A stretch of DNA of 17,779 nt, taken from a phage. The notes below the pieces were generated by a model. The model did no database searches. It saw nothing but the letters and a program-made list of their open reading frames with translations, and had not been told where the DNA came from. Below, piece after piece: positions 2,068-16,802 of this stretch; positions within the stretch are counted from its first letter, which is position 1; every line of letters starts with the position of its first letter. The stretch lies in assembly GCA_030820665.1 (NCBI GenBank), contig GCA_030820665.1_4852.1, one strand, 5' to 3'. Made by a program: the position numbers and the translations under genes.

Positions 2068-2076
2068 GGTGATGTG

Positions 2077-2626: not shown

Positions 2627-2640
2627 CCATATACCATCCA

Positions 2641-2649
2641 TGCTATAAT
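2641..2649 (+). promoter_or_regulatory. Candidate extended -10 promoter (TGcTATAAT) upstream of the portal gene
   Basis: TG at 2641-2642 and TATAAT at 2644-2649; weak -35. The -10 overlaps the left arm of the terminator hairpin. Confidence 0.3.
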
Positions 2650-2677
2650 CCCATCCAACGTGATGGGATTTTTTATT
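2647..2677 (+). terminator. Rho-independent terminator
   Basis: Perfect 9-bp stem AATCCCATC (2647-2655) / GATGGGATT (2662-2670), 6-nt loop, then a T-run. Confidence 0.7.
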
Positions 2678-2685
2678 GGTGACAT

Positions 2686-4098
2686 ATGTCAAAAATTGAT
2701 GCACTAAACGCTTATATACGCGACCGCGTAGCGAACAATAACCGGGCGATCCAGCAGCAACGGCTTTGCGCTGGCGGGAAGAATCTGGACCAGAAGCGAG
2801 AGTTCATGTGGAAGGAACTTGGCTACCCGCAGGAAATCACCGCCGAGATGTTCCGCTATGCCTATGAGCGACACCCAGCCGCCGCCGCTGGAATTAACCG
2901 CATTATTAATAAATGTTGGCAGAAATACCCTGAAGTTGTCGAAGATGGCGAGGATGACAAGAACTCAACGACATGGGAGCTGTCCATCAACGACATGATG
3001 AAGCGCGCCTACCCGTTCATCAAGGAGGCTGATAAGCGCAACGCCATCAACCGCTATTCCGCTGTTATCCTGCAAATCCGTGACGGCAAACAGTGGAGTG
3101 AGCCTGTAGACATTACAAAAACCCGCCGCATTAAAGATAAATCCATCGCTCGCTTTATTCCGGTATGGGAAGAGCAGCTACGCGTTAGCGCATGGAATAA
3201 CGACGAAACCAGCGAAGACTACGGAATGCCTGAGATGTACGAATATCAGGAAAGCGCCGTGGAGGACTTCGATAGCGATGGCAAGCCTGAGCGTTCCGTG
3301 CAGATTCACCCTGACCGCATCATCATTCTGGCTGAGGGTAGTTTTGACGGCAGTATGTTCAGTGGCATCCCGATGTTGCGTGCTGGCTACAATAGCCTTA
3401 TCGACATGGCTAAGGTTTCAGGTAGTTCAGCAGAAGGATTCCTGAAGAATGCCAGCCGTCAACTGGCTGTTAACTACACGAAGGACAACGTAACGCCAGC
3501 AAGCCTTGCGCAGTCTATGGGTGTCGATATTGAAGAACTCACTGACATCATGAATGAGAACATCGAAGCGCTAAACTCAGGCATCGACGCAGCTATGTTC
3601 ACAATGGGGGCGGATGCAAAGGTGCTTGCCGTAACGCCAGCCGACCCGAAACCAACATGGGAAGTGGCTGCCAACCAGTTCGCTGCATCAATGGCGCTTC
3701 CGTTCACCGTCATTTTTGGTCAGCAAACCGGACGCCTTGCGAGTGATGAGGACAAGATGCAGGAGGCGATGACAGCCAAGCAGCGCCGCGAAACGTGGGT
3801 TGATTATGTCATCTCAATGTTCGTTGAGCGCATGATTCAGTTCGGCATTGTCGATAAAGCACCGGCAAATGGCTACAAGGTTAAGTGGGATGATCTGCTT
3901 GCCCCATCAGAGCTGGATAAAGCTGAATTGCTGTCCAAGCTCGCCACTGCGAACAAGTCCTTCTTTGATGCTGGTCAATCTGCACTGCTGACCGTCGATG
4001 AAGCTCGCGGCATGGTTTGCATGGAGCCAATTGAACTTGACGAAAGCTATCGCGAAGACACACCGCCGGAAGACGAAAATGAAGATACTCCGGTTTAA
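2686..4098 (+). CDS. Portal protein (putative)
   Basis: 470-aa ORF immediately downstream of TerL and upstream of a MuF-like gene, with an acidic C-terminal tail ([11 protein letters not shown]). Called from size and gene order, not from a specific motif. Confidence 0.7.
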
Positions 4099-5029
4099 CG
4101 CAAGGCTACCCCAACCGCGCATATCGCAGAGCCTGACAGACCCGCTGGGTGCTGCGACTCGCCTGTCGAAGATGGATAAGGTGATAACGCGCAAATACAA
4201 ACAATTCAGGACTCGTGCTCTTGAGTTGTTTCGCACTATTCCGAACGGTCAGGCTAATGCAGAATCAAGCGGTCTGTATTTCTACGATTTCAGCAGTGCA
4301 CGGGCTGCCACTTTCATGGATGAGTTACAGGCGCTGATTGACGAGATTCTTCTTGAAGGTGATGATTTCGGTCACGGCAGGATGTGGGCCAATGTGTTCA
4401 TTGGTGATGCGTATCAGGCCGGAACACAAAAGGCTAACTCAGAACTGTCAAGCCTGTCTCCGGTTTACGCTGAGCAGAGGCCGATTGCCGCGATACTCTA
4501 CAGTGAGCCTTACCTGAATCGGCTCCAACTGGCTTATACGCAAGGTTACTCAGACTGGCGCGGATTGAGTGATTACTCCCGCCAGCAACTGGCATCTGTC
4601 ATTATGGAAGGCATTGCCCGTGGCGCTAATCCTCGCGATGTTGAAGCTGACATTGTTAAACGTGTTGATGTATCTCACAGCTACGCGAAACAGTTGGCGC
4701 AGACTGAAATAACCGGAACGCTACGTCAGGCTAACAGGCGGGAGGTCATTGAGGCGCGCGAAGAGTTAGGCATTGAGACGGTGATGCTGTGGCAATCGGC
4801 GTTGATGCGCACAACCCGCCAGACGCACGCAGCGCGACACGGACGGTTTTATACACCAGAAGAGATTGACACGTTTTATAGCGAGAATGGCAATAAATAT
4901 AATTGTCACTGTGCACAAACACCAGCATTGCTAATGGATGGGAAACCAGTCATTCTTGAATCCTCGCAGGAAAGGCTTGATAAACAGCGTGAAGCATGGC
5001 AATCAGTCAACAAAAAGCCCTCTAAGTGA
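4079..5029 (+). CDS. Head morphogenesis protein, MuF / SPP1 gp7-like (minor head protein)
   Basis: ORF track 3998-5029; the ATG at 4079 (MKILRF...) overlaps the portal stop by 20 nt. Position after the portal and about 315 aa fit the MuF-like family. Start is uncertain (4172 is an alternative). Confidence 0.65.
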
Positions 5030-5047
5030 GGGCTTGGTTTTGTCTTG
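5016..5047. terminator. Rho-independent terminator between convergent genes
   Basis: AGCCCTC (5016-5022) / GAGGGCT (5028-5034) stem with a 5-nt loop, followed by TGGTTTTGTCTTG. The stem overlaps the stop codon of the MuF-like gene. Confidence 0.6.
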
Positions 5048-5112
5048 TGAGCATACACAGAACAAATATTATTATCGCATAGCACAATATCTCTACGATG
5101 CTGAATATTGTT

Positions 5113-5757
5113 TTAATCATCCAGTTTCACGCCTGGAATTTTTCCTGCTGCAATGGCTTCATAAATTAGCTTGGCCTCGTCCTCGCGCCTGTAATCTTGA
5201 GCTGCCATTTCTAACACCGCGCAGATAGACTCAAGTACAGCCTCATGCTTCTTTTCTGCTTCTGTGCGTAGTGGTTTTAGGCTTTCCGGTACGAAGCAGC
5301 ATGACCGACCAGCACCACCTTCATCCCAATAGCAAACAGCCACATCGTTTCCGTCCGTTGTTGTCTTGTGCGCTACAACTTCCATTTCAGTGCCAGCATC
5401 AGGAATCCAGTCATTGCAGTATCCTAACTTTGGATTAAAGAAGAATTCTACTTTTGCACCAACTGGCGGCAGGCCTTCTCCATTCCATGTCTGCTTTTGC
5501 AATGCTGCTAGCGCGGATTCATACAAGTCGCGAGTTATCATACAATAATCCGTGGCTACGCTGACATAGCGACCGGGTATGGGGATTGCCACGGTGTACT
5601 GAAATGGCACATCAAAACCATCGCTATATCCCTTTGGGAAACAAAAAGCAATTGTGATACTGTCACCATTGAAATCACCAACTCGACACCTCTCAGCACC
5701 ATCAGGCCACCCACCACGCTTAGGTAATTCTTGAACTAACAGGTCGATAAGTTTCAT
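5113..5757 (-). CDS. Hypothetical protein (214 aa), distal gene of the minus-strand operon
   Basis: Uninterrupted minus-strand ORF; its start overlaps the stop of the upstream gene (5754-5757). No motif recognised. Confidence 0.65.
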   Translation of the reverse strand: MKLIDLLVQELPKRGGWPDGAERCRVGDFNGDSITIAFCFPKGYSDGFDVPFQYTVAIPIPGRYVSVATDYCMITRDLYESALAALQKQTWNGEGLPPVGAKVEFFFNPKLGYCNDWIPDAGTEMEVVAHKTTTDGNDVAVCYWDEGGAGRSCCFVPESLKPLRTEAEKKHEAVLESICAVLEMAAQDYRREDEAKLIYEAIAAGKIPGVKLDD

Positions 5758-6068
5758 TTTGTTTCTCCCAATGCTTTATTAACCGCGGCACGTGCATTAT
5801 CCAGAGCGCGACGCTTGCTTGATGTTGTCCAGCATTTTCCGGAGTGGTCGTCGTAGATTTCCAGAAGTTGCTGGAGTGCTGATAACAGGTCAGGAGATGC
5901 CGCTATTAGCCTTGCGTTATGCCATTGCTCGGTTTTATCACCGTTATATGTTGGAGTGAATGCAACCTCGACACCAATATCCGAGATAACATCTGGCGCG
6001 TTATCATCACCAACAACAACTTCCCATTTTCCATGCGTACCTTTAAATTCTTTCACATCCAACCTCAC
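5754..6068 (-). CDS. Hypothetical protein (104 aa), GTG start
   Basis: Minus ORF with no internal Met; the GTG start at 6068 overlaps the TGA of the upstream mini-ORF (GTGA). Confidence 0.55.
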   Translation of the reverse strand: MRLDVKEFKGTHGKWEVVVGDDNAPDVISDIGVEVAFTPTYNGDKTEQWHNARLIAASPDLLSALQQLLEIYDDHSGKCWTTSSKRRALDNARAAVNKALGETK

Positions 6069-6208
6069 TTAATATACTCAACAATCTCAACTTCACGCAT
6101 CTGCACCAGGCCAAATGGTGCAACCACCTTACCGCACGGACGGATTTTGATTTGCTCAAGGTTGAACACTCCGCAGCGTCCGTTTTCTTTGAATTTGACC
6201 ATTACCAT
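6065..6208 (-). CDS. Hypothetical mini-protein (47 aa)
   Basis: Hand translation of the minus strand: MVMVKFKENGRCGVFNLEQIKIRPCGKVVAPFGLVQMREVEIVEYIK. Packed between neighbours with overlapping stop/start codons. Confidence 0.4.
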   Translation of the reverse strand: MVMVKFKENGRCGVFNLEQIKIRPCGKVVAPFGLVQMREVEIVEYIK

Positions 6209-6210
6209 AA

Positions 6211-6369
6211 TTAATACCCGTTTTTCTTGGCTAATTGTTGCGCACGTTTCTTCGTGTACCCACAGGCCATCAGGCGCTTGACCTCGTTGCGGCGCCTTGC
6301 GAAATGGTACTCACGAGAATTAAATGCACATTCGTTGCTAAAGTTAACATTACGTGGATTCATCTTCAT
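6211..6369 (-). CDS. Hypothetical basic mini-protein (52 aa), first gene of the minus-strand operon
   Basis: Hand translation: MKMNPRNVNFSNECAFNSREYHFARRRNEVKRLMACGYTKKRAQQLAKKNGY. Strong SD (GAGGTGATGAAG then ATG) on the minus strand; Lys/Arg-rich C-terminal half. Confidence 0.45.
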   Translation of the reverse strand: MKMNPRNVNFSNECAFNSREYHFARRRNEVKRLMACGYTKKRAQQLAKKNGY

Positions 6370-6432
6370 CACCTCATTCATCACTTGATGTAGATACTAT
6401 GCACCAACAACCAATCTACGTCAACACCATTG

Positions 6433-6441
6433 TGATAGAAT
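6433..6441 (+). promoter_or_regulatory. Candidate extended -10 promoter (TGaTAGAAT) for the lysis cassette
   Basis: TG at 6433-6434, TAGAAT at 6436-6441, about 27 nt upstream of the GGAGG SD of the 6468 gene; lies in a divergent intergenic region. Confidence 0.3.
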
Positions 6442-6467
6442 TAATCATTATTTGAACTGGAGGCAGA

Positions 6468-6746
6468 ATGAAACTATCGCAACGAGGCGTGGAGACGTTT
6501 GGAATTACCGATGCCGTGAATATATCGCCTTACATCACTACCGAGACAACGCAGAATCAGTTCGACGCGCTGGCAAGTCTTGCCACCGACATTGGCATTT
6601 ACGCGTTCCGTAAATCAACGCTTCTGAAGAAGCACAACCTCCGCTGCTTCTCATGTGCTGTTGCGCATTTCATCGCGTGGGGCGAGAAGACTGGCGACAA
6701 AGCAAAACGCAAAGCTGAAAAAGAGGTTTACTGGTATGGCTATTAG
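6468..6746 (+). CDS. GH24 (T4/P22-type) lysozyme-like protein, truncated; probably catalytically inactive
   Basis: Strong SD (GGAGG, 5-nt spacer). The C-terminal half, TQNQFDALASLATDIGIYAFRKSTLLKKHNLR...AHFIAWGEKTGDK, matches the conserved C-lobe of GH24 phage lysozymes (recalled P22 gp19-type NQNQYDALCSL..IG.SAF.GSTVLRQLNL...AF..W). The N-terminal catalytic region is reduced to about 27 residues. Confidence 0.55.
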   Translation: MKLSQRGVETFGITDAVNISPYITTETTQNQFDALASLATDIGIYAFRKSTLLKKHNLRCFSCAVAHFIAWGEKTGDKAKRKAEKEVYWYGY

Positions 6747-7200
6747 TAAAAACATGAAGGCGTTTCTGGATATGCTGGCGTACAGCGAGGGCACTGATAA
6801 CGGGCGGCAGAAAACCAATAATCATGGTTATGATGTGATTGTTGGCGGCTCACTGTTTACCGACTATTCCGACCACCCGCGCAAGCTGATTAGCCTGCCA
6901 AGGCTGGGCATTAAATCCACCGCCGCCGGTCGCTATCAGGTACTGGCTAAGTTTTATGATGCGTACAAAAAGCAATTGCGTTTACCGGACTTCTCCCCCG
7001 CATCGCAGGACGCCATTGCAATGCAGCTAATCCGTGAATGCAAGGCCACCGCTGATATTGAGGCTGGTCGCATTGCTGATGCCATCCATAAATGCCGCTC
7101 CCGCTGGGCCTCATTGCCGGGCGCTGGGTATGGTCAGCATGAGCAGAAGCTGGATAAGCTGATTCAGGTATACAAAGAGGCTGGCGGAGCTGTGGCATGA
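6736..7200 (+). CDS. Endolysin, lambda R-type lytic transglycosylase
   Basis: From the ATG at 6736 (AAGAGG SD upstream) the protein is MAISKNMKAFLDMLAYSEGTDNGRQKTNNHGYDVIVGG...WASLPGAGYGQ..., near-colinear with lambda R as recalled, including the catalytic Glu context LAYSEGTD. Confidence 0.88.
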   Translation: MAISKNMKAFLDMLAYSEGTDNGRQKTNNHGYDVIVGGSLFTDYSDHPRKLISLPRLGIKSTAAGRYQVLAKFYDAYKKQLRLPDFSPASQDAIAMQLIRECKATADIEAGRIADAIHKCRSRWASLPGAGYGQHEQKLDKLIQVYKEAGGAVA

Positions 7201-7436
7201 AAAAGCTAAGCAACTGGCTGCTCGCCGCGTGGATTTCATTCTGCTCGCTGTTACAACTATGGCCTGATGCAATGATGCATGTGTGGGTAATGATGCCGGA
7301 TGACCTGAAAGCAGCGCTACCGCTAATCGTGGTCAAAGGTGTGAGTTACTCAATTATGCTTGTCGGCATCATCGGCAAAATGCACGGCATGAGGAAGGAA
7401 AACCGGAGGCTGCGCAATGATGTCGATTCTCGTTAA
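7197..7436 (+). CDS. Putative holin (two predicted TM helices, charged C-terminus)
   Basis: 79 aa; the ATGA overlaps the endolysin stop. Hydrophobic segments LSNWLLAAWISFCSLLQLW and LPLIVVKGVSYSIMLVGIIG, then KMHGMRKENRRLRNDVDSR. Confidence 0.45.
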   Translation: MKKLSNWLLAAWISFCSLLQLWPDAMMHVWVMMPDDLKAALPLIVVKGVSYSIMLVGIIGKMHGMRKENRRLRNDVDSR

Positions 7437-7908
7437 ATACTGGCGACCGCTGGCAATTATTATAATTGTTGCCGCTGGCGCGTTGTGGGTGGCAAATAAA
7501 GTGTCCGGTTATGGCGAGCAACAATATGCCGCCGGATACGCGAAGGCAGTCGCAGAACAGAAGGCCGCAGACGAACAAGAGGAGCAACGACGCAATGCAG
7601 AACTGCAAAAGATTCAGGCCGACGCACAGCAAAGGATTGATGCTGCGCGCAATGATGCTGTTAATGCTGCCGCTAAGTCTGGCAGGTTGCAGCAACAACT
7701 CACCAGTATCCGCAAGCAGCTCGTCGGATATTCCACCGCTGAGTCCATTGGCAACCCAGCCGCAGAAACCGGAGTTTTGCTTGCAGACGTGCTCCGCAAA
7801 TCTGTCGAAAGAAATCAACAGCTGGCAGATTACGCTGACAGGGCGAGAGAGGCAGGATTGACGTGTGAGGCACAGTATAATTCTCTGCGTAATAAAAAAG
7901 CCCCGTGA
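7417..7908 (+). CDS. Rz-like inner-membrane spanin (i-spanin)
   Basis: N-terminal TM helix (LAIIIIVAAGALWVA) followed by a Gln/Ala/Glu/Arg-rich predicted coiled coil; CCGGAGG SD; lies after the endolysin and holin candidate. Confidence 0.75.
   Translation: MMSILVKYWRPLAIIIIVAAGALWVANKVSGYGEQQYAAGYAKAVAEQKAADEQEEQRRNAELQKIQADAQQRIDAARNDAVNAAAKSGRLQQQLTSIRKQLVGYSTAESIGNPAAETGVLLADVLRKSVERNQQLADYADRAREAGLTCEAQYNSLRNKKAP
7640..7861 (+). CDS. Rz1-like outer-membrane lipoprotein spanin (o-spanin), nested in the +1 frame of the Rz-like gene
   Basis: ATG 7640 with AAAGGA SD. Translates MLRAMMLLMLPLSLAGCSNNSPVS...DIPPLSPLATQPQKPEF...: signal peptide, lipobox LAGC, proline-rich periplasmic segment. 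Lies entirely inside 7417-7908. Confidence 0.75.
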   Translation: MLRAMMLLMLPLSLAGCSNNSPVSASSSSDIPPLSPLATQPQKPEFCLQTCSANLSKEINSWQITLTGRERQD

Positions 7909-7922
7909 TGGGGCTTTGTTTT
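7898..7922. terminator. Rho-independent terminator (bidirectional) closing the lysis cassette
   Basis: AGCCCC (7899-7904) / GGGGCT (7910-7915) stem with loop GTGAT; A-run upstream and T-run downstream. Overlaps the Rz-like stop codon. Confidence 0.7.
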
Positions 7923-7942
7923 AACCTTCTCCGTAGCCAATG

Positions 7943-8320
7943 TCACGCATAAAGCGCCTCCATCTTGTACCCAAACATAATTGCATTCTGATGCTCAGTG
8001 CTACCAGAAAACACCAGATAGCGTTTACCTCGATTATCCGTAACGATGTAGGCAGCTGGTGAGTTTTCCTTCCTAAATCTGGCTTCGTCATCACTCCCTT
8101 CATACATCCTCCCACTCGCTGGCAGATACAAATCGAATGTTTGAATTTCCGTTCCGCTGCATTCATTGCTACGTTCATTGAACAGGATAGCCAATCTTGG
8201 GTTGCCATTGGAATGCTTTGCAGGGAATGCGATTCTCCAGCCATCGCACATATACTGACTTGGGTAGGATAGCCATGACTTACCGCGCCTACCCTCCGTA
8301 AGAATCGGCTTACTCGCCAT
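7943..8320 (-). CDS. Hypothetical protein (125 aa)
   Basis: Minus ORF (track 7943-8368). The ATG at 8320 has a strong SD (GGAGGATCATA then ATG). No motif recognised. Confidence 0.55.
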   Translation of the reverse strand: MASKPILTEGRRGKSWLSYPSQYMCDGWRIAFPAKHSNGNPRLAILFNERSNECSGTEIQTFDLYLPASGRMYEGSDDEARFRKENSPAAYIVTDNRGKRYLVFSGSTEHQNAIMFGYKMEALYA

Positions 8321-8585
8321 TATGATCCTCCACAATCCGCACCAGTGAGCACTCAAGATTCGGTGCATTGTAATTACCAGCCAGAAACAGCACGCTACCA
8401 GTGCTAATAAGCACCTGCTTCGCGTTCGCCTGCGACAGATTCTGCACGATGAATTGCGCTGTTTCTGTGCCGATTTTCAGCACTGCGCTGCCGTCGCTGT
8501 TCAGTGATACAAGTTGTGCGGAAGTGTCAGTAATGTTGGTGAAGTTCGCGTTTCGCTGCGCGATTGTGATGTCGCAAAAAGACAT
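8310..8585 (-). CDS. Hypothetical protein (91 aa)
   Basis: Minus ORF; overlaps the downstream gene start by 11 nt and abuts the upstream gene. Confidence 0.5.
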   Translation of the reverse strand: MSFCDITIAQRNANFTNITDTSAQLVSLNSDGSAVLKIGTETAQFIVQNLSQANAKQVLISTGSVLFLAGNYNAPNLECSLVRIVEDHNGE

Positions 8586-8887
8586 TATTTAATCTCTCCG
8601 TTCAGTTCATTAACAATTAACGTTGCATAGCCAGCAATATCTTTCCAGCTGTCATCATAAGTCGGGTCGCCATTCAGAATGCGCCCAATCTTGTGCTGAA
8701 TCATGTCGAGCGCCTCGCGTTGACTTGGTGTGAGATTGCGCCAGCCATCTACCTTGCGCATCACATCTTTCAACTCCTGCATAATTTCAGCGCCGTCTTT
8801 GAATTTACCGTATCGACTACCGCGTTCGGTGATGAGTCGCTCTGTTGCGTCAGTATGGCGCTTATCGCCCGTGATTTGTGAACTCAT
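8585..8887 (-). CDS. Hypothetical protein (100 aa), probably all-alpha
   Basis: Minus ORF with SD GGAGAA. Translates MSSQITGDKRHTDATERLITERGSRYGKFKDGAEIMQELKD...SQREALDMIQHKIGRILNGDPTYDDSWKDIAGYATLIV. No confident family assignment. Confidence 0.55.
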   Translation of the reverse strand: MSSQITGDKRHTDATERLITERGSRYGKFKDGAEIMQELKDVMRKVDGWRNLTPSQREALDMIQHKIGRILNGDPTYDDSWKDIAGYATLIVNELNGEIK

Positions 8888-9374
8888 TGTGATGCATTCT
8901 CCTGAATTCTTTTATTTTTGCTTCTGCTTCTCTTATGTCGGAAAAGTAACCAACTGTGAATCTTTTGCCATTTACTCCAACTCTTGCATGCCACTTGTTG
9001 TGCGATGAACTCCAGTTAACCCCCTTGATACCGCTAGTGTTGTTTTTGTTCATTGCTTTGTTGTGGCTATTCTCAAATTTGCTGGCCTCCCTTAAATTGC
9101 ACGCCCTGTTGTCATTGCGAATGCCATTAATGTGGTCAATCATTTCACTTGCTGGCGCGCCATGAATGCATATCCATGCCAATCTGTGAGCAAGAAAAGC
9201 CCTACCGCAAAGAATTATTTGCACATATCCATCTGGCTTTAAGTAGCCAGCCACACTCCCTTTTTCTGCAATCCTATTCCTTGTCTTTAGCCATTTAAAT
9301 TCCCCAGTTAGTGGATTGTAGTAAAGGTAACTCAATATAAACTCCCTACTCGGCTCATCTCTCCTATGCCTCAT
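8862..9374 (-). CDS. HNH homing endonuclease (HNH_3-type core with AP2-like C-terminal domain)
   Basis: Motifs YNPLTGEFKW, HRLAWICIHG, IDHINGIRNDNRACNLR and C-terminal SGIKGVNWSSSHNKWHARVGVNGKRFTVGYFSDIREAEAKIKEF. The region looks AT-richer than the flanking sequence. Confidence 0.85.
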   Translation of the reverse strand: MRHRRDEPSREFILSYLYYNPLTGEFKWLKTRNRIAEKGSVAGYLKPDGYVQIILCGRAFLAHRLAWICIHGAPASEMIDHINGIRNDNRACNLREASKFENSHNKAMNKNNTSGIKGVNWSSSHNKWHARVGVNGKRFTVGYFSDIREAEAKIKEFRRMHHNEFTNHGR

Positions 9375-9577
9375 TTCTCATCCTCTTTCATTGTCACCCT
9401 ATTATTCTCGTCAACACTGAAGTTGGCCCGAATCAAATCATACATATCTTCCTTAGGCATATCAGCCAGCGCCACATAGCAACGGGCGAAGTAGCGAACA
9501 TCACGGAGTGTCAGCGGTTGTCGCTTCTCCACAATGCTGGTGATAATGTCCATCGGCTCGCGTCGTGGTCTTGGCAT
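9371..9577 (-). CDS. Hypothetical protein (68 aa), first gene of the minus-strand operon
   Basis: Strong SD on the minus strand (GAAGGAGTAGTAAAT then ATG); its stop overlaps the HNH start (ATGA). Confidence 0.5.
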   Translation of the reverse strand: MPRPRREPMDIITSIVEKRQPLTLRDVRYFARCYVALADMPKEDMYDLIRANFSVDENNRVTMKEDEK

Positions 9578-9676
9578 ATTTACTACTCCTTCTCGAAAAA
9601 CATCTTGACGTTTCTACATCATTTAGTCAATGCTTGTTGACGTAGATTGTACCACAACGGAAAAGGTGATGTGGAA
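9578..9676. promoter_or_regulatory. Divergent intergenic region, probable promoter(s) for the 9577 minus operon and the 9677 plus block
   Basis: 99-bp AT-rich gap between divergently oriented genes. TTGACG (9606-9611) and TTGACG (9637-9642) on the plus strand; TTGACT and TACAAT-like hexamers on the minus strand. Spacing is not ideal for any single pair. Confidence 0.25.
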
Positions 9677-9874
9677 ATGCGATACAAAGAAATAGCAGCG
9701 AGATACCAGAAGGAAGTTCGCGAGGTTATGGAAATCCTTAACGTTCGCGAGGATACCATTAAGTTTGTGGAAACCGCCATGTGTTCACTGGCGCTTGAAG
9801 CGGAGGTTGCGGGTCGTGAAAAGGCTGACGAACTTATATCTGCGGTGGTTTATAGTTCAACCAGTAACGGTTGA
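9677..9874 (+). CDS. Hypothetical protein (65 aa)
   Basis: ATG 9677 with AAGGTG SD (track ORF 9647 starts at an upstream TTG). Confidence 0.45.
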   Translation: MRYKEIAARYQKEVREVMEILNVREDTIKFVETAMCSLALEAEVAGREKADELISAVVYSSTSNG

Positions 9875-9934
9875 AGATGAAGGTTATCTGTGCGTTGAGC
9901 ACGTTGTTATCAAATTCTACGGGAGAAATTATAA

Positions 9935-10129
9935 ATGGCGCATGACGAACTGTACGAAGAATCGTTAATCCAGAGGTTGAATGAAGTTGAGCGCACTCGC
10001 GAATGGCTGGAGTGCGAGTTACGAGAAGTGCGCAACCGCCTGCAACGCAAGCGCAGTCAGCAAAGAGATGTCATCGACTGGTCTGGGGGTACACCTAAAT
10101 TTAACAATCTGGGAGAATGGTTGAAATGA
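9935..10129 (+). CDS. Hypothetical protein (64 aa), charged, probably helical
   Basis: GGGAGA SD; its stop overlaps the start of the downstream HNH gene. Confidence 0.45.
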   Translation: MAHDELYEESLIQRLNEVERTREWLECELREVRNRLQRKRSQQRDVIDWSGGTPKFNNLGEWLK

Positions 10130-10656
10130 GCAACATTAGTAAGGAAAGCATTTTAAAGTTCCTCCAGCATGATGAAAATACAGGAAACTTTCTATGGATT
10201 GATAATTTCTCAAGAAAATCAAAGAAAGGGAAGGTGGCTGGAGGTATTACATCGCATGGGTATTGGAGAATTCAACTCCCCATCGGGAGGTTTTACGCAC
10301 ACAGAATGGCGTGGATTGTTTGCAATGGAGATATACCAAACGGATATGAGATTGATCACATAAATGGGAACAAGAAAGATAATCGCATCAGCAACCTAAG
10401 ATTGGTCACAAGAGGTCAAAATGTTATGAATGTAGGCGTGAAAAACAATAATACAAGCGGAGTTAAGGATGTTGTTTGGGACTCTTCGCGAGAAAGGTGG
10501 AGGGTTCAAATTACAGCCAATGGCAAGCATTATTATGGAGGTAGATTCTCGTCAATAACACAAGCAAAAGAGGAGAGGAACAGGCTCATAAAGATGGTTC
10601 ACGGGAAATTTTTGAATACAAAAGGTGAGCAATATGACACTACTAATGAACGATGA
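10126..10656 (+). CDS. HNH homing endonuclease (HNH_3-type core with AP2-like C-terminal domain)
   Basis: Motifs ENTGNFLW, HRMAWIVCNG, IDHINGNKKDNRISNLR and SGVKDVVWDSSRERWRVQITANGKHYYGGRFSS; paralogous to 8862-9374 and to the fragment at 1-168. Start is 10126 or 10117. Confidence 0.85.
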   Translation: MSNISKESILKFLQHDENTGNFLWIDNFSRKSKKGKVAGGITSHGYWRIQLPIGRFYAHRMAWIVCNGDIPNGYEIDHINGNKKDNRISNLRLVTRGQNVMNVGVKNNNTSGVKDVVWDSSRERWRVQITANGKHYYGGRFSSITQAKEERNRLIKMVHGKFLNTKGEQYDTTNER

Positions 10657-10870
10657 GAAATTACTTGAATGCCCGTTTTGTGGTTGTGATGACGTAAGTG
10701 TTATTGATGACGGCGAATGGTTGCACGTTGAGTGCGGAGATTGTTTTTGCCGCACTGACTCGTATTGCTGCGCATCCACGGCAATGAAGAAATGGAACAC
10801 AAGAGGTGGACACCTCTACACTTCCGACGACTTCAATCAGGCAGCAGAGGAGCGTGATTATGGACTATAA
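10634..10870 (+). CDS. Lar-like zinc-finger protein (restriction-alleviation family candidate)
   Basis: About 78 aa with LLECPFCG...x19...CGDCFC plus additional Cys, and a C-terminal AMKKWNTRGG resembling the Lar-family ...AWNRR ending (family recalled from memory). AGGTGA SD; the 5' end overlaps the HNH 3' end by 23 nt. Confidence 0.55.
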   Translation: MTLLMNDEKLLECPFCGCDDVSVIDDGEWLHVECGDCFCRTDSYCCASTAMKKWNTRGGHLYTSDDFNQAAEERDYGL

Positions 10871-11348
10871 ATCACAAATCATGCGCGTGATTATGAATCA
10901 CCCCGGAGCAACGCGCGCATACATTGAGAAGCATTGCGGAGGTAAGCATTCAAGCACCACAACGCATCGCTTACATGAGATGCTTGCTCTTGGATTCATT
11001 CGTCGCGAGAAGTCAGTGATTCGCGGCGGCAAGTGGCAGTATAAATATTTCATCTCTGATGATGCAGCCGGTATTGATGATGCTATTAAGTGCCATTTGC
11101 TTGATAACGCTGGCGCGGAAGTGAAAGAAATCAGTACCACCACTGGCATTGATTATCGCATCGTGAAAAGCCGCATCCGCATTATGTTTCATAACGGTGA
11201 TGTGACGCGAAGCTATGACCACCACAAGAAGCTGTGGCGTTATTCATGGAAGGAGAAGGAAGTCAATGTAAGCAATCTATTTAATTCACTTCTTCGCAGC
11301 GTAAGGGGTCAGCATGGGAAAAGCCAAACGCAAGAAGCAAGAGTATGA
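10860..11348 (+). CDS. Putative DNA-binding protein with two winged-helix-like repeats
   Basis: The ATG at 10860 overlaps the Lar-like stop. Two similar segments (MRVIMNHPGATRAYIEKHCG...RLHEMLALGFIRRE and KEISTTTGIDYRIVKSRIRIMFHNGDVTRS) resemble wHTH recognition units. Pattern-based only. Confidence 0.45.
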   Translation: MDYKSQIMRVIMNHPGATRAYIEKHCGGKHSSTTTHRLHEMLALGFIRREKSVIRGGKWQYKYFISDDAAGIDDAIKCHLLDNAGAEVKEISTTTGIDYRIVKSRIRIMFHNGDVTRSYDHHKKLWRYSWKEKEVNVSNLFNSLLRSVRGQHGKSQTQEARV

Positions 11349-11490
11349 ACCTCTACCGCCATGCGAAATGTCAGGAATGCCGCAGCAGGAGGATGTGATT
11401 CTCACCGAGGCTGAGTGGCGCAAGGTGGCAAGAGTGCAAATCATGTTCCGCACACTTGCTGAGGATGTACTAAATGAAATGGGCTATTAA
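11314..11490 (+). CDS. Hypothetical mini-protein (58 aa; below the ORF-track cutoff)
   Basis: ATG 11314 with GGGG SD. Translates MGKAKRKKQEYEPLPPCEMSGMPQQEDVILTEAEWRKVARVQIMFRTLAEDVLNEMGY. Overlaps both neighbours. Confidence 0.3.
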   Translation: MGKAKRKKQEYEPLPPCEMSGMPQQEDVILTEAEWRKVARVQIMFRTLAEDVLNEMGY

Positions 11491-11827
11491 GCATAAATCC
11501 GGCAGAACTCTGTTTGTAACATCGGATGAGTTTATTGCCAATAACCGTAGAAAGATGGGCTGGATAGTAGAGGAAGTGAAGATGACGAGTAGAGAGCAGT
11601 TTGAGCTCCAATGCAGAAATGGGTTGATCAATGGCGGATTAGCAGTGTTTGAAAATGGTGTTTACGCTTCCGAATTAACAAGAGCTGTCTGGGCTGGATG
11701 GAAAGCATCGCGCGCAGCAATTGAAATTGAATTGCCAGAGGAAGAAAGTTTGGGATGCCACGCTATTTACTATGCAGAAGATGTTATTGAGGCAATTGAA
11801 CAATCAGGCTTAAAGGTGAAAAAATGA
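11474..11827 (+). CDS. Hypothetical protein (117 aa)
   Basis: ORF with GAGGATG SD; ATGA overlap with the next gene. Confidence 0.5.
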   Translation: MKWAIKHKSGRTLFVTSDEFIANNRRKMGWIVEEVKMTSREQFELQCRNGLINGGLAVFENGVYASELTRAVWAGWKASRAAIEIELPEEESLGCHAIYYAEDVIEAIEQSGLKVKK

Positions 11828-12150
11828 TTATCCAACTAAACGACATTATGAAAGCAGACATCATTCAGCTTGAAGATTATGACGTGCAACTGGCGTTTGA
11901 AATCGAAACAGTTGAGCGTCAGCTGCAGTATGCTGATAAGAAGAATGATCGTGTCTGGCACGAGAAAGCACTTAAGGCGCGCGACCACATGAAACGCACG
12001 CGAGCGCTTATCAAAACGCGACTCGACAAGCTGTATTTTGGTGAAGAACGCATGTTGCATGGCGCGATACTGGCGCAAATCCGCAAGGAAATGCCAATTG
12101 GCAAGTTTATGTCATACGTTCACCGCGCAAAGCAGGAGGCCGGGTTATGA
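11824..12150 (+). CDS. Hypothetical protein (108 aa)
   Basis: Coupled ORF (ATGA overlaps at both ends). Confidence 0.5.
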   Translation: MIIQLNDIMKADIIQLEDYDVQLAFEIETVERQLQYADKKNDRVWHEKALKARDHMKRTRALIKTRLDKLYFGEERMLHGAILAQIRKEMPIGKFMSYVHRAKQEAGL

Positions 12151-12335
12151 GCGAACCAAAATTTCCAGAGCTGCCTGTTGAGGTTCAGGTTGCATTGATC
12201 AATGCGGCAAGTGCAATGGCGACAAAGAAGATTGAGGCAATAGGCAGTGATTACAACAGGAGCATAGACTGGTTTCAGAGGGAGTATCAAAAAATCTGCG
12301 ACGCACTCTACAAAGAAAACAGAGGTAGATCATGA
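12147..12335 (+). CDS. Hypothetical protein (62 aa)
   Basis: Coupled ORF; its stop overlaps the next ATG (12332). Confidence 0.45.
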   Translation: MSEPKFPELPVEVQVALINAASAMATKKIEAIGSDYNRSIDWFQREYQKICDALYKENRGRS

Positions 12336-12478
12336 TTTCATTGCTTTGGATATTATCAGCATATGCATTTGCGAGAGTATTTGAGGCCGACACTCTGTAC
12401 CAGATGATTTGCTATGGCGCTCTGTTCTGTCTCTCTGGTGCTGCGCTCGCATTCATTGATGATGTGATTTCAGAATAA
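12332..12478 (+). CDS. Hypothetical small hydrophobic protein (48 aa; below the ORF-track cutoff)
   Basis: ATGA overlap with the upstream gene. Translates MISLLWILSAYAFARVFEADTLYQMICYGALFCLSGAALAFIDDVISE. Confidence 0.35.
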   Translation: MISLLWILSAYAFARVFEADTLYQMICYGALFCLSGAALAFIDDVISE

Positions 12479-12632
12479 CTCCGTATATCTTTTGTTCATC
12501 ATGGGCTGCTATCATTTAATCATGAGGTAGCCCATGAACATAATCCCTATCACTTACTTTCTCACGCTATACGCACTCACCAATTCGCCATTGTTTGCAC
12601 TGGCTACCGCCTCGTGGTGCTATATCTCCCTG

Positions 12633-12641
12633 TGTTATAAT
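12633..12641 (+). promoter_or_regulatory. Candidate extended -10 promoter (TGtTATAAT) for the head operon
   Basis: TG at 12633-12634 and a perfect TATAAT at 12636-12641, about 32 nt upstream of the ATG at 12673 (GGAGAG SD). Preceded by a 194-bp non-coding leader. Confidence 0.45.
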
Positions 12642-12672
12642 TCGACCACAAACTAACCGTGGAGAGTTAACC

Positions 12673-14088
12673 ATGATTGTCAAGATTGGCGATAAGTGGG
12701 TGGTCAAGTCGAAAGACGGCTCACAGCAATTTGGTGAATACGACACAGAAGAGGCAGCAAAAAAACGCCTCGCAGAAGTCGAAGCGTTTAAGCACATGAA
12801 TAATAAATTGCAGGTTAACGTCCTGACAACCATCAATTCAGCCAGCAATATCAGTGAGCAAATCATTGATGGCGACCCGCACTACGTAATTAAAAACGTC
12901 GTGCCAGTGGTTGATGATGTTGTGATGAATAACGGCCTGTATCCGGGAGAGGAAATCCGCAAGAGCTATCACGGACTTGATGGTAAACCTGCACCATACA
13001 ATCACCCGATGATTGACGGTAAATATGTCTCTGCAAGCATGACGCGCGCAGCTAACCAGTTCAGCGTTGGCGCATGGATTGAAAACTCATCTCATGACGG
13101 CAGCAAGGCGCTGGTTGACCTGAAGGTAAACAAAGTCATCGCTGAACGCTCCGAGAAAGGTCAGGAGTTGCTTGGTCGCATTGAAGCGCTAATGAACTCC
13201 GCAGAAGGCGCAGAGCCAATCCATGTATCCACCGGCTTATTGCTCAACCGCGAGGCTACGGAAGGCACAAGCAAAGGCAAAAAATACACATGGATTGCGC
13301 GCAACATGGAATGGGACCATCTCGCCATCCTGCCGCCGGGAGTGCCAGGAGCTGGAACGCCAGAAGATGGTGTTGGAATCTTTGCCACCAACGGCGAGCA
13401 AATCGAACGCATCACCGTAAACCTTGAGGACTCAACCGTGCCAGACGAAAGCGCCAACAAGATTAATTATAAATCGTGGCTACATAAGGCCATCAACTAC
13501 ATCACCAACAAATCAGATTTGTCGTTTGAGAACATCAGTGAGCAGATTCGCCAGATTCTGAAGGCTGAAGTTGGCGAGGATGTCTGGCCTTATATTGTGG
13601 CTGTGTACGACGACCGCGTCGGATTTGAAATCAAAGGCCAGATTTTTCAGCAGCTCTACATCGTTGAAGATGATGTGGTAAAATTGGTCGGTGAGCGGGT
13701 CAAGGCTGTTTATAAAACTGAACTTGAGCCGGTAAAATCAACTGAAGGGGAAATCTCAATGACGAACGAGGAATTACAAGCGGCAGTAGCGGAAGCTACC
13801 AAGTTGGCCGTTAATGAAGCCCTCAAGCCGGTTCAGGAAAAGCTTGATTCCGTCACTGCTGAACTGACCGATGTTAAAGGCAAGCTCGCAGCCAACGCCG
13901 AGCAGGAAGAAACCGCGATGCGTGCTGCTATCATCGCGGAACTGAAACTGCCGGAATCCGCTGTGAATGCGCTGAAAGGCGAAGCACTGCGTGAAACCTA
14001 TGCGTTGACCAGCAAGCCTGCTGCGCTGAAGGGTGGCTTCCAGCCGAACCACGCTGATGACGATTTTGATATGGAGGCACCGGAATAA
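12673..14088 (+). CDS. Putative prohead scaffold / head maturation protein (C-terminal coiled-coil domain)
   Basis: ORF track 12595-14088; ATG 12673 follows GGAGAG. The C-terminal ~110 aa ([48 protein letters not shown]...) is scaffold-like. Position immediately upstream of the small head protein and capsid gene. Confidence 0.55.
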
Positions 14089-14573
14089 TGGCTACTATCC
14101 GTTATGGCACCATCATTGGTGGTCCAGCTCGCAAGAACGACCCGCAGATTCGCGAAGGCATCATGAAGGTCGCGTTGAAGCCGGGCGCACTGGTTGACTT
14201 CGATACTGCCTCCTCAATTCGTTCCAATTATGACAAAATCATCGCACACGCTACCGCTGGCGGTCAGGGATTCCCTTACGTGCTTCAGCATAACTATCTC
14301 GGTGGTGGCGATGTATCTGAATCAGTTCCTGCTAATGCTACTGGCATGGCTGTGCAGTGCGAATTTGGCGTCACCTATCACGCACTGGTTGCTGCATCTT
14401 CCGAGCTGAAGAAAGGCACCCCGTTGGCAAGTAATGGTACTGGCGCGCTGAAAGTTGCTGGTAATAGGGATAACATCCTGTTCTATTCTTATGAAACTTA
14501 CACCGTTGCCTCTGATGGCGCTGAGCTGGTTGCAGTTCGTCGCGCTGGCAATGCTTCCATGCCTGCGGCGTAA
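14088..14573 (+). CDS. Putative head decoration / auxiliary capsid protein (161 aa)
   Basis: TAATG overlap with the scaffold stop; lies between the scaffold-like gene and the capsid gene; Gly/Ala/Thr-rich, beta-type composition. Confidence 0.45.
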
Positions 14574-14584
14574 GGAGCCGAATA

Positions 14585-15658
14585 ATGGAAAAGATTATTT
14601 TTACCAAAGACTTGGTAGCCAACTCCGCAGTGGTGGCTGACCAGTGGAAACATCTCACCATCGACCGCAAGGTGTTCTGCAATGCAGAAGCTGAACTGGC
14701 GAAAACATACGGTGTTAACGCCACCGCGCTGGTAACGAAAGATTACTGGCGCGACGTGGATAACGTCACCACCCGTGTTTTCCGCAACGAAGCTGGCCAG
14801 GACATGATGGCTGACCTGATGGGTATCGCGGCAAACATTAACATTGGTAAGACTGTGGCAATCAGCCGCATTGCTTCCGATGCTGGCAAGGTAGTCCGCA
14901 CTCTGTCTGGTCAGGAGCCGGAAGACTTGGATAAAACTCGCTACGATTACACTGGCGACGTGATTCCAATCTTCAAAACTGGCTACAGCCGCGAATGGCG
15001 CGAACTGCTGGGTATGCAGTCTGAAGGTTTTGACCCCCTGCTGGACGATCAGGCTAACGTCACCTTTAACCTACGTTCCGACATGGCGCAGTATCTGCTG
15101 ACCGGCGACCAGACTCTGAACGTGAACGGCGTTTACACTGGCTACGGTATCACCAACCACCCGAACACCATTCAGGTCGACCTGAACGTTTCCAATGGCA
15201 GCCTGAAGATCGACCTGCAAACCGCAACGCCAGATGAAATCGTGAAATTCTTCAATCAGGATTTCCAGGCTATTCTGGATGCGCAGAACGTATTTGAGCA
15301 GGTGACTCTGTGGGTTTCCCCGGCAGTGCGTCGCAGTTTCATGCGTCCGTATTCTGATGCGGCTGGCTTCAAAGGCGGCACGGTTGAGCAGTACATCACG
15401 CAGTTCGGTAATGGTCGCATTGGTAAGATTGGCACCAACTTCCTGCTGACTGGCAACCATTTCGTTGGTTACGTTCGCAACGACATGTACATCCGTCCGC
15501 GTGTTGCTCAGCCTGTCTCCACCTATGCGGCAGCTCGCACCAACCCGCACGATAACTTTAACTTCCTCGTATGGTCTGCTTTCGGTCTGCAGATTCGCAA
15601 GGATGCCGCTGGAAAAAGCCGCGTCTTTAATTGCTATGGTAGCCAGAAAGCTAAATAA
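14585..15658 (+). CDS. Major capsid protein (putative)
   Basis: 357-aa ORF with a strong AAGGAG SD, last gene of the scaffold-decoration-capsid block, followed by a strong terminator. Confidence 0.65.
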   Translation: MEKIIFTKDLVANSAVVADQWKHLTIDRKVFCNAEAELAKTYGVNATALVTKDYWRDVDNVTTRVFRNEAGQDMMADLMGIAANINIGKTVAISRIASDAGKVVRTLSGQEPEDLDKTRYDYTGDVIPIFKTGYSREWRELLGMQSEGFDPLLDDQANVTFNLRSDMAQYLLTGDQTLNVNGVYTGYGITNHPNTIQVDLNVSNGSLKIDLQTATPDEIVKFFNQDFQAILDAQNVFEQVTLWVSPAVRRSFMRPYSDAAGFKGGTVEQYITQFGNGRIGKIGTNFLLTGNHFVGYVRNDMYIRPRVAQPVSTYAAARTNPHDNFNFLVWSAFGLQIRKDAAGKSRVFNCYGSQKAK

Positions 15659-15660
15659 TA

Positions 15661-15687
15661 AAAAAGGGGGTTTATCCCCCTTCTTTG
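15661..15687. terminator. Rho-independent bidirectional terminator
   Basis: AAAAAGGGGG-TTTAT-CCCCCTTCTTTG: GGGGG/CCCCC stem (15666-15670 / 15676-15680) with an A-run upstream and T-run downstream. The minus-strand gene's stop (15672-15674) lies in the loop. Confidence 0.8.
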
Positions 15688-16478: not shown

Positions 16479-16504
16479 AAAGTCACTCCTAATTTGGTTT
16501 TATA

Positions 16505-16534
16505 TTACCACGAGTGTAACTAGTGTGCTACAAT
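16505..16534 (+). promoter_or_regulatory. Candidate promoter (TTACCA, 18-nt spacer, extended -10 TGcTACAAT)
   Basis: TTACCA at 16505-16510; TG at 16526-16527 plus TACAAT at 16529-16534; about 30 nt upstream of the ATG at 16565, in a divergent intergenic region. Confidence 0.35.
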
Positions 16535-16564
16535 TAACCAGCATTAACTCATGAGGATATTTAA

Positions 16565-16762: not shown

Positions 16763-16766
16763 ACTG

Positions 16767-16790: not shown

Positions 16791-16802
16791 TTGGGGGTTT
16801 CT

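Follow-up and report, generated by a model that had tools for sequence, protein, structure and literature searches.

How several nuclease genes of the HNH type came to lie in one short stretch of a phage genome, and whether they account for its mosaic organization, is the question raised by the window considered here, i.e., the whole 17,779-nt stretch of contig GCA_030820665.1_4852.1 (assembly GCA_030820665.1). Its source is a Skatevirus-like Salmonella/E. coli phage. The window contains three HNH-AP2 genes and one apparently unrelated HNH gene, each confined to a few related phages. The initial annotation had counted three HNH genes, which holds for the HNH-AP2 type, but the fourth, a sporadic, putative HNH-superfamily gene on the minus strand, had been missed. 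The features referred to below are as follows:

1–168, plus strand: HNH0, AP2 tail encoded by the final 55 codons of a gene of 170 aa (AP2 match, ZCEC08 orthologue)
161–1585, plus strand: TerL, Terminase_3 with RNaseH-like domain (Pfam, 7e-36)
8585–8887, minus strand: DUF6378 gene, 100-aa short form (Pfam, comparison with relatives)
8862–9374, minus strand: HNH1, 170 aa, HNH_3-AP2 (ORF, Pfam, PHROG 99)
9371–9577, minus strand: 68-aa gene that leads the leftward accessory cluster, conserved flank of the HNH1 slot
9935–10129, plus strand: orf64, left flank of the HNH2 slot
10126–10656, plus strand: HNH2, 176 aa, HNH_3-AP2 (ORF, Pfam, PHROG 99, profile, model)
10634–10870, plus strand: Lar-like restriction-alleviation gene, right flank of the HNH2 slot (PF14354, 6.7e-10)
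15672–16478, minus strand: ORF268, putative HNH-superfamily gene (phrog_1035 "endonuclease VII", 4e-19)

HNH1 and HNH2, already described as complete genes, are indeed intact ORFs; HNH2 is read from ATG 10126, with an alternative ATG at 10117. Positions 1–168, taken earlier for a gene fragment, are in fact the 3′ third of an otherwise complete gene whose remainder falls beyond the window edge. Frame 1 of this segment encodes the 55-aa AP2-like tail (Pfam AP2, E=7e-5), and the whole gene is present in phage 6947 (L002, 1–513) and in ZCEC08 (47414–47926), where positions 47759–47926 are 100% identical to the window segment. The nuclease part of HNH0 lies outside the window and was read from this orthologue. 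HNH0 is located between a putative TerS (small terminase) and TerL, i.e., inside the packaging pair, and its stop codon (166–168) overlaps the TerL gene by 8 nt, ATG 161 being the true TerL start according to the annotation in relatives.

All three genes match PHROG 99 with E values from 1e-58 to 1e-67 (3e-64 for HNH1; 1e-67 for HNH0, with the whole gene taken from the orthologue). In Pfam, HNH_3 is matched above its gathering score by HNH1 (6.8e-11) and HNH2 (3.4e-20), and AP2 by HNH1 at 9.7e-5 and by HNH2 at 5e-3; for each single sequence of the trio the AP2 score (23.0, 17.5, and 23.5 bits) is below the gathering score of 33.3. The motifs quoted earlier do align: the IDHIN/DNR/NLR core is common to both full-length copies in the window, and the G.K.V.W...W...GK...G.FS tail motif to all three proteins. 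HNH0 has the same HNH_3-type core in the alignment and no cysteine zinc motif. I-HmuI, an HNH nicking endonuclease encoded in a group I intron of Bacillus phage SPO1, is the closest solved structure both by sequence and by fold (PDB 1U3E). It is matched by a single sequence at E=2e-4 and by the nuclease part of a profile of 49 homologues at 6.5e-8, and the tail of the same profile matches the plant AP2/ERF structures WRI1 (7WQ5, 1.8e-9) and TEM1 (7ET4, 9e-5). Among the matches listed, about half of the homologues carry a precomputed PF00847 match. The AlphaFold model of HNH2 (pLDDT 91.2) finds I-HmuI (2.5e-4) and the TEM1 AP2 domain (probability 1.0) as its best PDB folds in Foldseek and superimposes on AtERF1 with an rmsd of 1.4 Å over 51 columns. 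The earlier assignment to HNH plus AP2 proteins of the homing-endonuclease type is supported by all these lines, each protein having a His-Me finger nuclease domain and a C-terminal AP2 domain.

The predicted layout comprises an N-terminal β-rich extension, an I-HmuI-like His-Me-finger core, and a C-terminal AP2 domain that would bind DNA. The catalytic core would be formed by D-H of IDHIN, N of DNR, N of NLR, and a further downstream N; D77, H78, N86, N90, and N102 are invariant across the 49 homologues. HNH0, HNH1, and HNH2 are all full length and retain every conserved catalytic residue. They are free-standing: the Rfam scan of the window, group I and group II introns included, gave no family at threshold, the flanking genes are complete around each HNH gene, and the junctions are stop/start overlaps of the adjoining genes. 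The tRNA scan of the window was empty, no meaningful direct or inverted repeats that might indicate transposition flank the HNH genes, and consensus matches to promoters or terminators proper to HNH1 and HNH2 are as frequent as in shuffled sequence.

The three slots have been compared with their counterparts in relatives, and alleles without the HNH gene, which had been expected earlier, are read directly at each of them. In HNH2-free genomes (ST1UNAM, 6947, Sf11, and Skate), orf64 and Lar overlap stop on start in an ATGA, and this is exactly the point at which HNH2 is inserted. In the window, orf64 stops at the TGA of the ATGA on which HNH2 sits, the last 22 bp of orf64 bear 6 substitutions relative to ST1UNAM, and Lar restarts at an ATG within the HNH2 3′ end, preceded by AAAGGTGAG, with 4 codons deleted in comparison with the HNH2-free alleles. 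Identity to ST1UNAM is 99.7% up to 10113, and the alignment stops at 10129; identity to ZCEC08 is ~99.6% up to ~10854. In a distant contig (L010), this slot is bordered by an orf64-like C-terminus and holds an HNH gene 67% identical to HNH2 in protein, and then Lar; in DNA, the two HNH genes are 74% identical, while the flanks are hardly alignable.

At the HNH1 slot, the HNH1 start codon and the stop codon of the 68-aa gene upstream share an ATGA, and the start and first codons of DUF6378 lie within the HNH1 3′ end, the overlap being 26 nt. Genomes lacking HNH1 (6947, Skate, and Sf11) encode a 159–202-aa form of DUF6378 with an additional N-terminal domain; their filler of 200–380 bp comprises this domain with or without a 60-aa ORF. 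Among 215 records, no clean empty HNH1 site was found, only alternative fillers and shortened "seszw" records, which argues that HNH1 came by replacement rather than by simple insertion. In EcoIv28_Lewi, HNH1 is 98.2% identical, whereas the sequences on its two sides reach 90.6% and 92.6% (Fisher p=1e-6). At the TerS–TerL slot, Bas79 and KE08 have a hydrophobic ORF of 52 or 45 aa in place of the HNH gene between a TerS-like gene and TerL, and the N-termini of their TerL proteins are closely related to that of the window. Another HNH gene, 49% identical to HNH0, fills this slot in Sf11 and IME207. Between 6947 and Skate, HNH0 is 94.6% identical and TerL 88.5% (p=6.5e-5).

Among the ~211–215 phage records that share the backbone, HNH1 is present in 3, HNH2 in 1 (ZCEC08), and HNH0 in 25–37, while homologues at E<1e-10 occur in ~2,700–2,900 of 50,697 phage records. 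Most of the HNH1- or HNH2-bearing genomes, which are very few in all, are near-identical around the genes. The presence of HNH1 in ZCEC08 and ST1UNAM and of HNH2 in ZCEC08 may reflect simple shared descent, and purifying selection, not recent transfer, could partly be behind the higher conservation of the HNH genes.

The two complete HNH genes had also been described as AT-richer than the structural genes, and all three HNH-AP2 genes are the AT-richest of their neighbourhoods: GC is 0.421 for HNH1, 0.394 for HNH2, and 0.423 for the HNH0 tail, with 0.46–0.50 in the immediate neighbours, 0.50–0.53 in the head genes, and a mean of 0.473 for the whole window. When 520-bp windows are ranked by GC, HNH2 is among the bottom 0.6% and HNH1 among the bottom 6.7%. 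Their placement at module boundaries, as proposed initially, applies only loosely, since HNH0 is inside the TerS/TerL pair, and HNH1 and HNH2 each lie in the interior of one of two accessory-gene clusters that are transcribed divergently.

Taken with strong confidence, the best account of these data is that HNH0, HNH1, and HNH2 are free-standing HNH(HNN)-AP2 homing endonuclease genes, not intron-encoded, which were independently acquired by a Skatevirus-like virulent siphophage. The earlier word "paralogous" is correct in the sense of one family and does not extend to duplication in this genome. A common family and architecture and a distance between copies of at most 10 kb might speak for within-genome duplicates, i.e., true recent paralogues whose patchy presence arose by differential loss. 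Such an origin is extremely unlikely: pairwise identity of the trio is merely 37–43%, nothing more than 50% identical to any of them was found apart from the respective orthologues, HNH0 is nearer to the Sf11 gene of the same slot than to HNH1 or HNH2, equally distant homologues number thousands in other phages, and an HNH1 cassette 98% identical in flanks 91–93% identical points to gain, not loss. Judged by sequence, the three genes are one family and not recent duplicates.

For HNH0 alone, its position directly upstream of TerL and overlapping it, in a slot that is often HNH-filled, might suggest another role: like HK97 gp74, it could be a non-selfish nuclease that assists packaging by cutting concatemers together with terminase. 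HNH proteins linked to packaging are generally short, of the PF01844 type, and lack a separate domain for sequence-specific DNA binding, whereas HNH0 has the HNH_3 plus AP2 architecture without a cysteine zinc motif, its TerL neighbour is of the Terminase_3 type, and all that it shares with the gp74 type is the place beside the large terminase. HNH0 is not universally conserved by the terminase; Bas79 and KE08 have no HNH gene at a closely similar TerL, so HNH0 is dispensable for packaging. Its conservation above that of TerL between diverged genomes fits a mobile gene, and a packaging function is very unlikely. Finally, all three genes might have lost their mobility, whether by decaying into relics without activity or by being domesticated, either as regulators that bind DNA or as a means of fighting rival phages or satellites. 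Degeneration is the usual fate of the HNH-AP2 family after invasion (PMC2248197), and co-option of AP2 domains as regulators is on record (PMC10448857). The intact catalytic residues, the conservation above the flanks combined with a sporadic presence, and the HNH2 lineage in the identical slot of the distant phage argue instead for recent, site-specific spread, and loss of mobility is improbable.

If the genes are homing endonucleases, they would spread during co-infection with a relative lacking the gene. The enzyme would bind the uninterrupted insertion site and presumably either nick or cut both strands nearby, at target sequences that may correspond to the HNH-free junctions; the break would be repaired by the phage recombination machinery with the gene-bearing genome as a template, and the recipient would thereby gain the gene together with some of the sequence beside it. 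The donor genome would be spared because the insertion and the nearby substitutions destroy the site. Expression would probably be achieved by riding host operons through the ATGA stop/start overlaps, and the HNH genes would provide new start sites for Lar after HNH2, DUF6378 after HNH1, and TerL after HNH0. The three proteins would be active enzymes, and their genes may still be mobile.

Both the HNH-AP2 family and its link to recombination boundaries have already been published, and the ZCEC08 annotation names these genes "HNH homing endonuclease". Free-standing HNH(HNN)-AP2 genes of phages were described by Magnani et al. 2004, as cited in PMC10448857; HNH-AP2 genes of the Xanthomonas phages Xp10, OP1, and Xop411 are treated in PMC2248197, and vibriophage ICP1 carries "IPA-HNH" genes (PMC10448857). 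The window genes share with the published HNH(HNN)-AP2 genes the HNN-type His-Me finger without CxxC zinc motifs, the HRLAW, DNR, NLR, and EN boxes, the C-terminal AP2 domain, several dispersed copies per genome, positions that vary in close relatives, and a location adjoining essential genes, e.g., terminase. There is no substantive difference from these genes; what is new is the lineages (below 50% identity outside orthologues) and the Skatevirus-like backbone. They differ from the IPA-HNH genes of ICP1 in that their HNH domain is found directly by Pfam HNH_3. With I-HmuI they share the N-terminal β extension and the catalytic motif, but I-HmuI is intron-encoded and has non-AP2 C-terminal DNA-binding modules, whereas the window genes have an AP2 tail and no detectable intron.

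The fourth gene, ORF268, has the terminator of the capsid gene on one side and the next gene on the other, has a GC of 0.406, and is sporadic in relatives. Its product combines a zinc ribbon at the N-terminus, a helical region rich in K and E, and, at the C-terminus, the motif WHIDH..N..HNL..N; all records examined label the gene hypothetical. Its family counts 7,179 representatives at E≤1e-3. The residues H198, D200, H201, N220, N224, and N233 are conserved. On the basis of these residues, the phrog_1035 match, and the PF01844 matches of 13 of 36 distant homologues, ORF268 can be relabelled as a probable divergent HNH-superfamily nuclease, apparently unrelated to the HNH-AP2 trio; in hhalign, its profile aligns with the HNH-AP2 profile at the catalytic motifs with a probability of just 5%. 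Neither its sequence nor two profiles drew anything but noise from the PDB, and the AlphaFold model has pLDDT <50 over the putative nuclease domain. NCBIfam yielded a few ORF268 matches, far under the curated cut-offs, and nothing useful for HNH1 or HNH2. A consistent difference in the capsid C-terminus depending on the presence of ORF268 was considered and rejected, since ZCEC08 has an ORF268 homologue and yet an "empty-type" C-terminus.

As to the mosaic, identity to ST1UNAM, ZCEC08, or 6947 reaches 99.5% or more in three blocks (1–4104, 6412–10113/10894, and 15572–17728), and every one of them holds or ends at a nuclease gene common to the window and that relative. Between the blocks, identity to the three closest relatives is mostly 77–97%, with the exception of 14600–15000, which is identical to ST1UNAM. 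The proposal that the HNH genes explain the mosaic is only partly supported: at least HNH2 sits at sharp identity breakpoints, but the mosaic as a whole cannot be accounted for in this way, several breakpoints having no nuclease gene nearby (~4100, 5000–6400, 11600–11800, 12800, 13800, and 14600). It is conceivable, if rather doubtful, that the blocks 1–4104, 6412–10894, and ~14600–17728 are co-conversion tracts of the four HNH genes; they could equally belong to a clonal frame that the window has in common with very near relatives and that unrelated recombination has broken up. High-identity tracts at nuclease genes, as in the window, are also a feature of the "HEG islands" of Barth, Dunham and Seed 2023, as outlined in PMC10448857, compared with which the window offers three blocks only.

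Few accessory genes of phages are as common as those for HNH-AP2 homing endonucleases, and their recognition here carries little weight beyond annotation. The defined junctions provide ready substrates for cleavage assays, and the slots occupied by the HNH genes are dispensable places at which Skatevirus-like phages could be engineered for therapy. If the co-conversion reading were true, mosaicism in Skatevirus-like phages would stem chiefly from homing endonucleases, and ORF268 would represent an unnamed zinc-ribbon HNH homing-endonuclease family targeting the end of the capsid gene.

The window spans packaging, head, lysis and accessory genes of a virulent siphophage from the Skatevirus/Cedarrivervirus/Shuimuvirus cluster, which is related to Salmonella phage Vi II-E1. 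By megablast, it matches 211 related phage records, the nearest being Salmonella phage ST1UNAM (96% identity, 91% of the window covered) and the E. coli phages ZCEC08 and 6947. The gene order, taken from the ORFs of the window and the annotation in relatives, is as follows.

1-168, plus strand: tail of the HNH-AP2 gene HNH0
161-1585: TerL
Between TerL and portal: five small ORFs
2686-4098: portal
After the portal: head morphogenesis gene
After the head morphogenesis gene, before the lysis cassette: three leftward ORFs
6468-7908: lysis cassette
7943-9577: leftward accessory cluster, including the HNH-AP2 gene HNH1
Between the leftward and rightward accessory clusters: short divergent intergenic region
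9677-12335: rightward accessory cluster, including the HNH-AP2 gene HNH2, Lar and a winged-helix gene
12673-15658: scaffold/protease, decoration and major capsid genes
15672-16478, minus strand: ORF268
After ORF268: two further rightward genes

Within the lysis cassette, the endolysin region consists of two ORFs (6468-6746 and 6736-7200), for which 6947 has no matching nucleotide sequence over window positions 6488-7196; a different "lysozyme R" gene (L002, the 6947 genome, 7401-7841) occupies the endolysin slot there between conserved flanks, and no nuclease gene is close to this lysis-gene swap.

Both complete HNH genes of the initial annotation were found in the ORF calls at exactly its coordinates (8862-9374 and 10126-10656), and the HNH/AP2 motifs that it quoted fall in register when the sequences are aligned. 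The stretch 1-168, in contrast, had been mistaken for a C-terminal gene fragment. Its frame 1 is stop-free and encodes the AP2-like tail, and ZCEC08 and 6947 have a complete 170-aa gene whose final 168 nt match the stretch exactly; the gene is incomplete here because the window begins inside HNH0. Pfam HNH_3 is matched well above threshold by HNH1 (E=6.8e-11) and HNH2 (E=3.4e-20), their Pfam AP2 matches stay under threshold, and all three proteins match PHROG 99 "HNH endonuclease" (E=1e-58 to 1e-67). A family profile composed of HNH2, HNH1 and 47 database homologues (49 sequences) matches I-HmuI (PDB 1U3E) with its nuclease part (6.5e-8) and plant AP2/ERF crystal structures with its tail (WRI1, 1.8e-9; TEM1, 9e-5; then ERF096 and AtERF1). 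AlphaFold models HNH2 with confidence (pLDDT 91.2), and the top PDB fold matches of the model are I-HmuI, the TEM1 AP2 domain and AtERF1 (rmsd 1.4 Å, 51 columns). The AP2 domain is established at the level of profile and structure, though single sequences fail the Pfam threshold. The 49-sequence alignment shows no variation at the catalytic D-H pair or at the downstream asparagines, and every copy keeps these residues; no cysteine zinc motifs were found in HNH0, HNH1 or HNH2, which likens them to the "HNN-AP2" class of Xanthomonas phages (PMC2248197).

The HNH genes are indeed AT-rich, as had been claimed, with a GC content of 0.421 (HNH1), 0.394 (HNH2) and 0.423 (HNH0 tail) against a window mean of 0.473, 0.46-0.50 in their immediate neighbours and 0.50-0.53 in the head genes; in a GC scan, HNH2 is the AT-richest half-kilobase of the window (0.6th percentile). 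The term "paralogous" holds in the sense of one family and fails in the sense of recent duplicates, as pairwise identity among the three is only 37-43%. HNH0 is nearer to the HNH at the same slot in Sf11 (49%) than to HNH1 or HNH2, the best non-orthologue matches in tblastn reach 48% identity for HNH1 and 44% for HNH2, and homologues at E<1e-10 occur in about 2,700-2,900 of the 50,697 phage records searched. Judged from these sequence relationships, the simplest reading is that each gene was acquired independently, out of a very large pool.

HNH2 is present in one phage record, ZCEC08. HNH-minus alleles, expected by the initial annotation, were found for both HNH2 (ST1UNAM, 6947, Sf11) and HNH0 (Bas79, KE08). 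In the three former phages, a single ATGA provides the stop of orf64, the left-hand neighbour, and the start of Lar, while in the window the same ATGA provides the orf64 stop and the HNH2 start. Lar then restarts at ATG 10634 within the HNH2 3′ end, with the ribosome-binding sequence AAAGGTGAG ahead of it and four codons lost. A much more distantly related phage (contig L010) has a 67%-identical HNH2 homologue between the end of an orf64-like ORF, which finishes in NNLGGWLK (NNLGEWLK in the window orf64), and a Lar gene, its stop and start codons again overlapping with the neighbours; the HNH DNA is 74% identical to that of the window, and the flanks are hardly alignable. The central zinc-ribbon region of the restriction-alleviation protein encoded by this Lar-like gene (10634-10870, plus strand) is itself hypervariable (46-56% amino acid identity between phages, with flanks at about 90% DNA identity), the N- and C-termini of the protein being conserved; diversifying selection unrelated to HNH2 is a possible cause.

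HNH1 is known from three phage records (ZCEC08, ST1UNAM, EcoIv28_Lewi), its flanks from 215. No clean empty site was found among these 215, so HNH1 is taken to have come by replacement. HNH1-free genomes carry one of two fillers: in Sf11 a 202-aa DUF6378 protein, in 6947 and Skate a 159-aa form together with a 60-aa ORF. The DUF6378 gene of the window (8585-8887, minus strand), compared with L002 9212-9691 and 11576-12184 of Sf11 (L005), encodes 100 aa, misses the N-terminal domain of the long form and is started by an ATG lying inside HNH1, at the 3′ end; the insertion thus remodelled the host gene, leaving the Pfam domain intact. Many "Salmonella phage seszw" records (MZ3753xx, OL964742; reduced, 37-45 kb) have only about 310 bp between the HNH1-slot flanks, which suggests that the slot is dispensable; these reduced-length records may be the phages whose genomes were reduced in the laboratory in PMC9825161.

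HNH0 is found at ≥94% identity in 25 records, a number that rises to 37 when partial or diverged matches are counted. Its slot is filled by an HNH of 49% identity in IME207 and Sf11 and by a 52- or 45-aa hydrophobic ORF in Bas79/KE08. That HNH0 is a packaging nuclease like HK97 gp74 is unlikely, given that there is no HNH at the slot in relatives whose TerL N-termini are closely similar, and that the protein is built like HNH1 and HNH2, with an AP2 domain. The first ~250 nt of TerL (window 201-400), just 3′ of HNH0, are 74-76% identical to Skate and Sf11 against 83-95% for the remaining TerL; this could be because TerL is variable at its TerS-binding end, or because a target site has diverged beside a homing endonuclease.

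A fourth nuclease gene, the AT-rich ORF268 (GC 0.406), is "hypothetical" in every record examined. It follows the terminator of the capsid gene, with the next gene on its other side; in 6947, Skate and Sf11, which do not have it, the capsid gene and that next gene are 59 bp apart, a stretch made up of terminator and ribosome-binding site. ORF268 occurs in 14 phage records, the ZCEC08 copy being a 76%-identical variant. It matches phrog_1035 "endonuclease VII" (4e-19), its family comprises 7,179 representative proteins at E≤1e-3 in an exhaustive profile search, and 13 of 36 distant family members match Pfam HNH PF01844. H198, D200, H201, N220, N224 and N233 are invariant, and the protein has a divergent HNH motif, WHIDH..N..HNL..N; the structural model shows a confident zinc ribbon at the N-terminus and, after it, long K/E-rich helices, with the nuclease domain modelled poorly. 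The best reading of ORF268 is a divergent member of the HNH superfamily and candidate homing endonuclease, of a family distinct from that of HNH0, HNH1 and HNH2. The adjoining 3′ end of the capsid gene (15179-15647) bears 24 clustered mismatches to ST1UNAM amid near-identical sequence, and no consistent difference in the capsid C-terminus was found between ORF268-bearing and ORF268-free genomes.

The HNH1 ORF of EcoIv28_Lewi is 98.2% identical to that of the window (9 differences in 513 bp), its flanks less so (DUF6378 core 90.6%, 68-aa gene 92.6%), and the shift in mismatch density lies no more than about 10 bp from the ends of the ORF (Fisher p=1e-6). A comparison of 6947 with Skate gives 94.6% identity for HNH0 and 88.5% for TerL (p=6.5e-5), and VSt472, CHRF_10023.1 and the KE phages share with the window a backbone at about 89-90%, HNH0 at 94-95% and ORF268 at 95-98%. 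Nuclease genes closer than their flanks, together with the same-slot HNH2 of the distant phage, are what site-specific homing would predict; the three contrasts in identity could come partly from stronger purifying selection on the nuclease genes. That the HNH genes are inactive or domesticated is disfavoured: their catalytic residues are intact, they occur sporadically, and they are better conserved than their flanks. The search for introns in the window and for repeats flanking the HNH genes found none, and that for promoters of HNH1 and HNH2 gave nothing above chance; expression would apparently depend on translational coupling inside host operons. Further HNH or endonuclease genes lie elsewhere in Skate (L004, 4795-5694 and 13535-14041), Sf11 (8123-8608) and ZCEC08 (L003, 34910-35410, minus strand). 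The extra HNH/endonuclease genes of relatives occupy the SSB/recombinase gap, the portal/head-morphogenesis gap and accessory clusters, nuclease-gene load and position varying widely across the group.

The proposal that HNH genes explain the mosaic organisation stands at the HNH2 junction and the HNH1 cassette edges. Relative to ST1UNAM, the window is 99.7% identical over 6412-10113, has six substitutions in the final 22 bp of orf64 and ceases to align at the HNH2 junction (10129); alignment returns at 91% from 10791. Relative to ZCEC08, identity stays at about 99.6% from 7574 until about 10854, some 200 bp past HNH2, and is 90-94% thereafter. Blocks of ≥99.5% identity to ST1UNAM, ZCEC08 or 6947 span 1-4104, 6412-10113/10894 and 15572-17728, and 14600-15000 is 100% identical to ST1UNAM, with 98-98.5% by 15400. 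Every block holds or ends at a nuclease gene common to the window and that relative; the inter-block stretches (about 4100-6400 and 10900-14600) are without such a shared gene and for the most part share 77-97% identity with the three closest relatives, some parts being unaligned. These near-identical blocks look like the "HEG islands" of Barth et al. 2023 (PMC10448857), and, there being three blocks only, they are equally explained by a clonal frame of very close relatives broken by unrelated exchanges. Breakpoints without a nuclease gene nearby lie at about 4100, 5000-6400, 11600-11800, 12800, 13800 and 14600, and HNH-driven exchange therefore does not explain the entire mosaic.

The HNH-AP2 family has been known since 2004 (Magnani et al. 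2004, as cited in PMC10448857), phage genomes with several dispersed copies are well documented (PMC2248197), and homing endonuclease genes have been tied to exchange boundaries (PMC10448857); the ZCEC08 annotation already labels the orthologues "HNH homing endonuclease". Three such genes are indeed there, and the observation was correctly interpreted in its core: it is a textbook case, HNH0, HNH1 and HNH2 being homing-endonuclease-type genes of an already known kind.
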